A stretch of DNA of 64,000 nucleotides from Candidatus Thorarchaeota archaeon (lineage in GTDB: Archaea > Asgardarchaeota > Thorarchaeia > Thorarchaeales > Thorarchaeaceae), in NCBI GenBank assembly GCA_004524445.1, contig SDNP01000006.1, positions 36,914 to 100,913 on the forward strand, given 5' to 3'. Positions 12,349 through 14,419 of this stretch are shown here, in pieces. The notes below the pieces were generated by a model that worked only from the letters and a program-made list of their open reading frames with translations, ran no database searches and had not been told where the DNA came from. Each line of letters opens with the position of its first letter. Within the stretch, counting starts at the first letter, position 1. A program made the position numbers and the translations under genes.

Positions 12349-13410
12349 TTCTCTTTTTCCAAGCAAGAACTCCTCTACCCATCGTTCGGCTCTGTACATC
12401 TTGGTTGGTTTGGGTGGCATCTTGAAACCATATGCTGAAATCGATTCAAGTGCTCCTCCGATTCCTCTATTCAGCGCTAATTTTGTACCTCTGATAGCGT
12501 CGAAAAGTATGGGACCCGCATTAGGGCCATCTGTCACTTCCATCCTAATGTCTATCTTGATGGGTGCTCCACCAAATTGACGACCATGAATATAGAAGTA
12601 TGAGTCACGAGAGTTGTCCATAAACGGAACAAAATCTGATGAACCAGCCACAATTGGTGCATCATACGGAACGTCTTGACCCACTGCGGAGCTTTTTACT
12701 CCCCGTTTTCGCATGCGGCCTCGATAGTGTGAGTCTAGAGACTCAGCACCTCCTCCTACGTCTAGCTGGTAGCTTTCATCGATCTTGACGCCTCTTGATA
12801 CGAGTAACTGCATCAGGTTCCTATGAAGTACCGTTGAGCCAAGCTGGTCCTGAATGTCGTCTCCAACAAGAGGTATGCGTTTGTCTTTGAATTTCCTGTC
12901 CCATTCCGGATCTGAGGCTATGGATATCGGTGTACCGTTGATGAATGCACAACCAGCATCGAGTGCTGCCTGAGCATAGAATTTCGTCGCCTTTTCTGCA
13001 GAGCCAGGTATAAGACAAATCACCATGTCCGCTCTGCTGTCGCGCAATACATCGACTACATCTGCTTCTTTAGCATCAGAAACATTTGCGAGCGCCTTGA
13101 GGTTCTTGTCTACTCCGTCTAGCTCTCTTCCTCGATGAACTTTGACGCCCGTTTTCTCTATCTTGGCAAATTTCATGACATTATTTGGCTCTGCGAAAAT
13201 AGCTTCTGCCAGGTCTGCCCCTACTTTTCCTTCAACCACATCAACAGCCGCAACAAAATCAATGTCTCTCACATGGTATCCCGCAAAGTCTGGATGATCC
13301 AATCCAATAATCTCGTCACTTGCTCTTGCGTCCCTATAATACTCTACACCTTGCACCAATGCGCTGGCACAATTACCGATGCCAACTAATGCTACTTTTA
13401 TGTCACTCAT
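12343..13410 (-). CDS. ino1: myo-inositol-1-phosphate synthase
   Basis: GIGNCASALVQG, VGDDIQDQLG and DGPNAG motifs; start placed at MSDIKVALVG. Confidence 0.9.
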   Translation of the reverse strand: MSDIKVALVGIGNCASALVQGVEYYRDARASDEIIGLDHPDFAGYHVRDIDFVAAVDVVEGKVGADLAEAIFAEPNNVMKFAKIEKTGVKVHRGRELDGVDKNLKALANVSDAKEADVVDVLRDSRADMVICLIPGSAEKATKFYAQAALDAGCAFINGTPISIASDPEWDRKFKDKRIPLVGDDIQDQLGSTVLHRNLMQLLVSRGVKIDESYQLDVGGGAESLDSHYRGRMRKRGVKSSAVGQDVPYDAPIVAGSSDFVPFMDNSRDSYFYIHGRQFGGAPIKIDIRMEVTDGPNAGPILFDAIRGTKLALNRGIGGALESISAYGFKMPPKPTKMYRAERWVEEFLLGKREL

Positions 13411-13507
13411 ATCGAAAACATCCAACTTGCCTTTCCTAAGCCATTGAGAATATTTTACCATTATAAACTTTTATGGACATAGAATAGTATGAGCTCAATG
13501 CTCTTGT

Positions 13508-13526
13508 GGCAGTAAATTTAATTGCC
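13508..13526 (+). promoter_or_regulatory. TATA box of the candidate ncRNA inside an imperfect palindrome
   Basis: GGCAGTAAATTTAATTGCC; TTTAAT at 13517-13522 lies about 25 nt upstream of 13544. Confidence 0.5.
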
Positions 13527-13543
13527 TTGGCGCGAAATAATAT

Positions 13544-13771
13544 GGTGGACGACAGATTGACATTCGTGCTCCAAGTTGTAATCCCCAGGCGGTGGGATTG
13601 CTCTACTGTCAATCGGCACCTATAGGAATGTCCAGATCATTGGAGGTTCCTGCCGAAGAGGATGGTGTTCACATTGACGGGCGAGGAGCTGTTCATGTTC
13701 ATCAAAAGGGGTGGACCTCAGCCTTTCGGGCGTGAGAAAAAAAAATTGGGTGGTGTCGATCGTCGTCCACC
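13544..13771 (+). ncRNA. Structured non-coding RNA of unknown family (about 228 nt)
   Basis: Perfect terminal helix GGTGGACGAC/GTCGTCCACC, several internal hairpins with G-U pairs favouring the + strand, upstream TATA and downstream T-run. Confidence 0.7.
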
Positions 13772-14017
13772 TTTTCTTCCGATTCTCCATCTATTAGAAG
13801 TTCTAAAAGAATACATGCGATTTTTCCTAAATCGAATTGTCGAGCAATCAAGATCATGTTCATTCTTTTTTACAAGTAAAATCGCCGTTCAACTAGCATA
13901 GCATTCTTATGGCAATAGAAAACGACATTTGCATACAGCAGATTCAGGCTGCTCTTAGGATTCAAAAGAACCCTCATCAAAAGCACCCAATAATCTCCAT
14001 GCCAAGAAGTGATCAAG

Positions 14018-14419
14018 ATGAAAACAGACTACGACCCGATTGAGATGGAGATTGCGGAACTAAAACCAAGAATGAAGCGTCTCAAGGTGACATTCAAGGT
14101 ACTCGAAAAAAGCAATCCTCGAGAAGTCACAATAAAGCGCGATGATTCCAATCACCAGATCGCTGATGCGGTTGTTGCAGATGAAACAGGCTCTGTTGTT
14201 ATGCCTCTCTGGGACAAAATGATAGATGAGATAGAGGTAGGTCGCACCTACACACTGAGTAACGGATATACTGGCACGTTTCGAGGGAGTCTTCGGCTCA
14301 ACATTGGCAAGTACGGGAAAATCACGGATGCAGAAGAAGAGATTGACGGAGTTAATCTAGAAAATGATGTATCAGAATTAGCAGAAAAACCACATTACTA
14401 CCGTGGAAAGGGTACATAA
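14018..14419 (+). CDS. Single OB-fold single-stranded nucleic-acid binding protein (SSB/RPA-like)
   Basis: IADAVVADETGSVVMPLWD...NGYTGTFRGSLRLNIGKYG archaeal SSB signature. Confidence 0.88.
   Translation: MKTDYDPIEMEIAELKPRMKRLKVTFKVLEKSNPREVTIKRDDSNHQIADAVVADETGSVVMPLWDKMIDEIEVGRTYTLSNGYTGTFRGSLRLNIGKYGKITDAEEEIDGVNLENDVSELAEKPHYYRGKGT

Follow-up and report, generated by a model that had tools for sequence, protein, structure and literature searches.

Positions 13547–13771 of the forward strand of the window (the whole 64 000-nucleotide stretch of Candidatus Thorarchaeota DNA analysed here) are a genuine, independently transcribed gene for a structured RNA, with a conserved core of 225 nt. 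This supports the central inference of the initial annotation, which had proposed an independently transcribed and possibly undescribed RNA at this position. Comparison with related genomes and with known RNA families suggests that the gene represents a new family, without detectable relatives among those already known, and that this family is specific to the Thorarchaeaceae, a family of Asgard archaea. No published description of this RNA was found in literature searches.

The features of the gene are collected in Table 1. We take 13547 as the conserved 5′ end on the basis of the GGACG sequence, which is conserved among the homologs at a fixed distance from a TATA-like box. In each of the 39 loci having upstream sequence this box (CTTATGT or CTTAATTG) follows a group of purines and lies 24–31 nt upstream of GGACG with constant spacing, which is the canonical spacing of an archaeal TATA box. 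The TATA box predicted from the window alone is therefore present and is kept at the homologous loci, and the predicted T-run after the gene, from 13772 onward, is likewise kept in the homologs listed, where the T-rich run begins directly after CGUCC-NCC. The start had been placed at 13544; the homologous loci move it three bases further in, to GGACG. In the window's genus the GGT at 13544–13546 can pair with the ACC tail, which lengthens the terminal helix. Some frames of the region contain few stop codons, but no reading frame is conserved and the longest open frame changes both strand and frame from one homolog to another.

Table 1. Features of the RNA gene in window coordinates. R1 is a covariance model built from seven sequences and R3 a second-generation model built from 41; double changes are compensatory changes of both partners.
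Feature	Positions	Strand	Description
Promoter	13510–13524	+	Purine-rich BRE-like bases, then TATA-like box TTTAATTG at 13517–13524, its centre approximately 27 nt before the conserved 5′ end
RNA gene	13547–13771	+	Full-length covariance-model matches: R1, 167.7 bits; R2, 154.8 bits; R3, 117.4 bits
P1 and P2, 5′ strands	13547–13564	+	P1 13547–13553, GGACGAC; P2 13555–13564
P3	13568–13572 with 13685–13689	+	GCUCC with GGAGC; double changes at 4/4 pairs, 95.1% paired; closes the central domain
P4	13578–13601	+	Covarying hairpin of variable sequence; double changes at 10/10 pairs
P5	13606–13680	+	Long helix, 13606–13613 with 13673–13680 and 13615–13620 with 13664–13669; encloses P6 and the P7 remnant
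P6	13623–13652	+	Hairpin with near-invariant core GAAUGUCC ... GGAGAUUC and a G/G mismatch
P7 remnant	13653–13661	+	CC-GAAGA-GG in the window's genus, from the alignment
P8 region	13693–13720	+	YCAY-GUUCA ... GGUGGACCUC; GUUCAUC 13697–13703 with GGUGGAC 13710–13716
P9	13717–13736	+	Variable hairpin CUCA-GCCU-UUC-GGGC-G-UGAG; double changes at 8/8 pairs; outer helix 64.6% paired
A9 linker	13737–13745	+	Window's genus only
P2 and P1, 3′ strands and tail	13752–13771	+	P2 13752–13761; P1 13762–13768; unpaired NCC tail 13769–13771, here ACC
Termination signal	13772–13781	+	TTTTCTTCC, T-rich run directly after the conserved CGTCCNCC in the homologs listed

The + strand of the RNA region has a minimum free energy (MFE) of −97.2 kcal/mol, compared with −72.4 ± 4.9 kcal/mol for 200 dinucleotide shuffles (z = −5.03), none of which reached this value. 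The corresponding energy of the − strand is −69.6 kcal/mol (z = −2.43). In the paired columns of the 41-homolog alignment G-U or U-G is found 337 times and A-C or C-A only 79 times, an excess which indicates that the RNA is read from the + strand, as the G-U pairs of the window had already suggested. The MFE fold contains hairpins P4, P6 and P9, together with the previously described 10 bp terminal helix between GGTGGACGAC (13544–13553) and GTCGTCCACC (13762–13771) and its extension by G-U pairs, both of which are also evident in the sequence.

Covariation was assessed in an alignment of 41 homologs (median pairwise identity 53%, minimum 38%), the model for which includes a manually added long helix. 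Standard pairs occupy 85.3% of the pair cells, compared with 68.5% in column shuffles, and compensatory double changes occur at 58 of the 71 base pairs, so that the covariation in homologs which had been sought as a check on the fold is present. The covariation score is 0.466, whereas it lies between 0.053 and 0.093 when the pairing partners are slid by 1–3 columns. The covariation picture from the first, seven-sequence model agrees with that from the 41 homologs.

The two ends of the RNA are linked by a rod of approximately 17 bp formed by P1, which has 7 bp of the form GGACGNN/NNCGUCC, and P2. The combined helix has 16 pairs in the alignment, of which 14 show double changes, and is 88.5% paired. 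The 3′ tail is ACC in most homologs, with ACU, CCC, UCC, UCU, CCA and CCU as variants. All 11 pairs of P5 show double changes, the duplex being formed by differing sequences in every homolog, and this helix terminates in a three-way junction with the sequence-conserved hairpins P6 and P7. In other genera P7 is a conserved hairpin, CUCUCACC..GGUUCAGAGAG, with a 3 nt bulge; in the window's genus it is reduced to a stub. The region of P8, which follows P3, is the most conserved stretch, with almost no variation among the 41 homologs; the pairing predicted for it shows one-sided changes only, with no double covariation. GUUCA is the most repeated pentamer of the RNA, occurring at least twice in 29 of the 41 homologs at two fixed places approximately 45 nt apart. 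We note that a GUUCA pentamer persists in the 13664–13671 region of the window despite the reduction of P7.

Several structural elements had been proposed from the window alone, and the homologs discriminate between them. The hairpins GTAATCCC/GGGATTGC (P4), AGGAA..TCCA/TGGA..TTCCT (P6) and CTCAGCC/GGC.TGAG (P9) are conserved. The pairing of GCTCC with GGAGC is also conserved, but as an ordinary nested helix (P3) and not as part of a pseudoknot; the alternative pseudoknot CTCCAA/TTGGAG is not conserved among the homologs, and neither is the hairpin GATGG..ACAT..GC/GC..ATGT..TCATC, the bases of which belong to P5, P3 and P8. The suggestion of two conformers does not extend beyond the window's genus, in which the alternative pairing is favourable (−10.1 kcal/mol); the homolog median is −6.4 kcal/mol, compared with −11.8 kcal/mol for P2 and −12.7 kcal/mol for P5. 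The unpaired run of nine A residues is present as described, but it is restricted to the window's genus. A scan of column pairs in the alignment for pseudoknots or additional pairs gave nothing convincing. Two further candidates were rejected: the CUGCAG palindrome in the P6 loop as a dimerization site, which is inconsistent across genera, and pairing of GGUGGAC with the 3′ end of the RNA itself, which is lost where the 3′ end varies.

BLAST searches of related genomes yielded one copy with 93% identity in a sister species and short colinear matches in three other genera, and a motif scan of all species genomes identified the bearers as Candidatus Thorarchaeota. Of the 86 genomes from the GTDB family to which the window belongs, 68 gave exactly one full-length match with the seven-sequence model R1; these represent 14 of the 16 genera. 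The 41-sequence model R3 additionally recovered the genus that R1 had missed, giving 15 of 16 genera, and in a phylum-wide sample the RNA is present in 24 of 26 genomes of the family. The remaining genus is represented by four genomes (83–93% complete), in which no match was obtained even with lax filters; at the syntenic ino1 locus of two of these the intergenic space is too short to accommodate the RNA. The RNA is therefore not essential to all members of the family. A sensitive scan of the sister family gave no match. Among 151 Asgard genomes scanned with R1 and R3, the 125 from 26 other families gave no credible match, and the matches found there, at 20 bits or less, are spurious and lie within protein-coding DNA. 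When all species genomes were scanned with a degenerate P6–P7 pattern, the matches listed were mostly chance bacterial ones, and every archaeal locus among them with an R3 score carried the label Thorarchaeota, Promethearchaeota or Hermodarchaeota. Dispersed copies, which would have pointed to a MITE, were not found: there is one copy per genome at a fixed syntenic site, and the genome of the window itself (2.79 Mb, 90% complete) likewise contains a single one.

The position of the gene is also largely fixed. Divergent upstream of the RNA, ino1 (encoding myo-inositol-1-phosphate synthase) is found in 36 of 39 loci, and a gene for a CCG/4Fe-4S protein is convergent downstream in 34 of 39. In 15 of 39 loci a gene for an SSB-like OB-fold protein (14009–14419 in the window) is inserted between the RNA and the CCG gene. 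Of the two genes with which synteny had been anticipated, ino1 thus adjoins the RNA almost throughout while the OB-fold gene does so in a minority of loci. The initial annotation had named the OB-fold protein as a candidate partner of the RNA. Its family has 5–9 matches per Thorarchaeota genome, some of them multi-OB proteins of approximately 615–630 residues, and since it is multi-copy and occurs as well in the genus lacking the RNA, this suggestion is unsupported. In rearranged loci the genes beside the RNA (GNAT, subtilase, rubrerythrin and ArsR-like by Pfam) include none that is RNA-related.

Some further observations were made in the course of this comparison. The sequence ACATAGAATAGTATG at 13477–13491 of the window contains a conserved ATAGAATAGT box between the TATA box of ino1 and the promoter of the RNA. 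Even the genus without the RNA retains this box ahead of ino1, and a near-identical ATAAAATAGT occurs in the sister family; the box is likely to be a regulatory site of ino1 and not to belong to the RNA gene. In one RNA-less genome the ino1 ortholog (contig C6, 29019–30095) contains an in-frame TAG, and every genome checked has a second ino1 paralog with 42–47% identity. Outside the window, the 16S rRNA gene of the window's genome (contig C9, ~96 780–97 140) has, close to its 3′ end, an apparent insertion of approximately 27 nt flanked by GTAAC and AACAAGGTA, and does not show the usual GGATCACCTCC end before the contig stops. These anomalies could be rRNA introns or insertions.

Evidence of transcription comes from Logan contigs of salt-lake metatranscriptomes. 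Three studies contain contigs of 169–193 nt with a word depth of 12–45 that are at least 95% identical to the RNA and lie wholly within 13556–13743; contig evidence of this kind carries neither transcript ends nor strand. No contigs were found for ino1 or the downstream region in the runs of those three studies. As contaminating DNA should cover the flanking regions too, the pattern suggests that the RNA was recovered preferentially over the mRNAs of its neighbours. The contigs leave 10–30 nt uncovered at the 5′ end of the RNA and 28 nt at its 3′ end, probably owing to an assembly break at the A-run combined with strain variation. A fourth run (X6) contains contigs at a depth of 3 that span 13721–14032, beginning in the 3′ part of the RNA, crossing the spacer and entering the SSB-like gene. 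These could reflect read-through, a long 5′ UTR of the SSB mRNA or carry-over of DNA.

The proposal that the RNA was undescribed is borne out by the search of the whole window against Rfam 15 (4227 families), which gave no match to it at gathering thresholds. At an E value of 10 the segment 13400–13900 gave two matches, both at chance level, and 20 homologous loci from other genomes gave none. The window carries all of the features that would define the proposed family: the GGACG ... CGUCC-NCC rod, P3 as GCUCC/GGAGC, the GAAUGUCC/GGAGAUUC core of P6, the GUUCA ... GGUGGACCUC stretch and the TATA-like box at about −27.

In our view, the reading best suited to these data, which we favour with some reserve, is that of a previously uncatalogued, stable and trans-acting structured RNA of the Thorarchaeaceae that would serve as the subunit or scaffold of a ribonucleoprotein (RNP). 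The RNA is transcribed alone from its TATA/BRE promoter, starting at or beside GGACG (13547), and transcription stops in the T-run after CGUCC-ACC (13771). The P1/P2 rod of approximately 17 bp locks the two ends together and carries a multi-helix core, in which P3 encloses P4 and P5, with P6 and P7 borne on the three-way junction of P5, and is followed by P8 and P9. The P6, P7 and P8 elements may be the surfaces of the RNP that contact protein or ligand. That the RNA is stable and acts in trans is suggested by the invariant loops and bulges carried on covarying helices, the protection of its ends by the rod and the lack of an associated mRNA. For the role itself, we infer that a protein-binding scaffold or RNP subunit is the most likely, a view to which we attach about even confidence or slightly more. 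The genes around the RNA are either metabolic (ino1 and the CCG/4Fe-4S protein) or variable, and no protein partner emerges among them. Since none of the four genomes of one genus contains it, the RNA is dispensable, unlike the RNAs of classic housekeeping RNPs.

A more specific proposal, which we regard as improbable, is an RNP subunit or ribozyme working on the 3′ ends of tRNA or other RNAs. It is based on the 7 bp terminal stem with a discriminator-like NCC tail, on two T-loop-like GUUCR motifs approximately 45 nt apart and on the complementarity of the invariant GGUGGAC to ends of the form ...GUCC-ACC. If this were true, the archaea most closely related to eukaryotes would possess a new RNA-based activity.

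Among the alternatives to an RNP role, a base-pairing regulatory sRNA is a modest possibility. Here the seed for pairing with mRNAs or with the 3′ ends of RNAs would be either GGUGGACCUC, which is invariant and weakly paired, or the GUUCA loops. The near-invariance of this 10 nt stretch in all 41 homologs, coupled with a predicted pairing that lacks double covariation, is what such a seed might be expected to show, and GGUGGACCUC is purine-rich and resembles a Shine–Dalgarno sequence. However, the genome shows no enrichment of seed complements (GGTCCACC: 42 occurrences, 53 expected), and both exact complements of the 10-mer lie within coding DNA away from gene starts. The motif likewise ceases to pair with the 3′ end of the RNA itself where that end changes, and nine covarying helices far exceed what a seed-type sRNA needs. 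The 3′ end of tRNA-Ala, GGUCCACCA, was considered as a target of GGUGGACCUC; the two are complementary, but this is a single coincidence.

We consider it improbable that the RNA acts without protein as a ribozyme or a ligand-sensing RNA. Large orphan RNAs with complex multi-junction folds are sometimes catalytic, and the present RNA has both such a fold and invariant unpaired nucleotides. Against this, it matches no self-cleaving or riboswitch family, the column-pair scan gave no conserved pseudoknot and there is no downstream gene that is kept and that a sensor could control. A riboswitch or mRNA leader was rejected on related grounds, as the T-run directly follows the RNA and, at most loci, the gene downstream is transcribed towards the RNA.

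It is very unlikely that the RNA is a cis-acting element, whether as the leader of the SSB-like gene or as a regulator of the divergent ino1 within a common promoter region. The proximity of ino1 in nearly all loci and the low-depth contig of run X6, which runs from the 3′ part of the RNA into the SSB gene, would both be accounted for in this way. The SSB gene is nevertheless downstream in only the 15 loci noted above, its place being taken otherwise by the convergent CCG gene, and the homologs have a T-run terminator after the RNA. Furthermore, ino1 has its own TATA box, lies on the opposite strand and persists unaltered in the genus from which the RNA was lost, and shared gene order in a single family may be due simply to relatedness.

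The idea that the RNA belongs, in highly diverged form, to a known class (RNase P/MRP, SRP, tRNA-like or tmRNA, Y RNA, or a C/D or H/ACA guide) is largely refuted. The resemblances on which it would draw are those of GAAUGUCC to the CR-I sequence of RNase P, GAAAGUCC, of the terminal stem and NCC tail to a tRNA or 4.5S end and of the repeated GUUCA to a T-loop. Apart from the chance-level matches mentioned above, none of 21 family members matches Rfam at an E value of 10, the archaeal RNase P RNA models (RF00373 and type T RF02357) and the archaeal SRP RNA model (RF01857) included, and the genuine RNase P RNA (166 bits) and SRP RNA (113.5 bits) of the window's genome are encoded on other contigs (C49 and C30, respectively). 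The GAAUGUCC sequence sits in the local, covariation-supported hairpin P6, without a P4 pseudoknot, and the helix 8 motif of SRP RNA is absent. ARAGORN finds no tRNA or tmRNA within 13000–14300, and there is no T-arm beside the acceptor-like 3′ strand. The sole match to a C/D box sRNA is to sR53, at 13 bits compared with a cut-off of 49, while the window's − strand sequence UGAUGA, which might be read as a C box, becomes UUUGAAC in most genera. No Rfam H/ACA match covers the RNA and no ACA box follows any of the consensus hairpins. A Y RNA or YrlA was also rejected: the 90%-complete genome has no Ro60/TROVE gene and there is no Rfam match. Lastly, the terminal inverted repeats and scarcity of stop codons in some frames might recall a MITE, a chance cluster of palindromes or a small protein gene, but all three are refuted by the single copy per genome at a fixed syntenic site, the compensatory changes and the lack of a conserved frame.

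No known organisms are more closely related to eukaryotes than the Asgard archaea, whose repertoire of non-coding RNAs is, to our knowledge, almost unexplored. A single-copy, nine-helix, covarying RNA that is found in RNA libraries and is unrelated to the 4227 Rfam families constitutes a new RNA class, and RNAs of such complexity have historically been RNP cores or ribozymes. This importance is tempered by the confinement of the RNA to one family and by the fact that the analysis reveals no function. The RNA nonetheless offers biochemistry a concrete target of approximately 225 nt, for which a 41-sequence alignment and a covariance model exist, and the genus that lost it provides a natural comparison in the search for a partner.

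The comparison with tRNA-like or 4.5S-type RNAs is confined to the ends: P1 has 7 bp, is followed by a break in the helix and bears an unpaired NCC tail with a discriminator-like variable first base. Unlike tRNA, the RNA has no T-arm, D-arm or anticodon arm, and no CCA is encoded, the T residues following directly after the tail. The archaeal SRP (7S) RNA (RF01857) and RNase P RNA (RF00373) resemble it in several respects: each is a few hundred bases in length and is encoded by a free-standing, single-copy gene that has its own promoter and T-run, a terminal helix joins the two ends, and covarying helices bear conserved loops. In contrast to these RNAs, which it does not match in sequence or structure, the Thorarchaeota RNA is without the P4 pseudoknot and the helix 8 motif, is limited to one family and has been lost in one genus. 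The orphan non-coding RNAs raiA, OLE, ROOL and GOLLD, which are bacterial or phage RNAs and Rfam families, differ from it in that it is archaeal, is approximately 225 nt in length, has a fixed chromosomal context and has no Rfam match to them. Their biochemical function was unknown at discovery, and they were defined comparatively by many covarying helices with invariant nucleotides at the junctions; the RNA described here was found by comparative analysis in the same way and shows the same combination of many covarying helices and invariant junction nucleotides.
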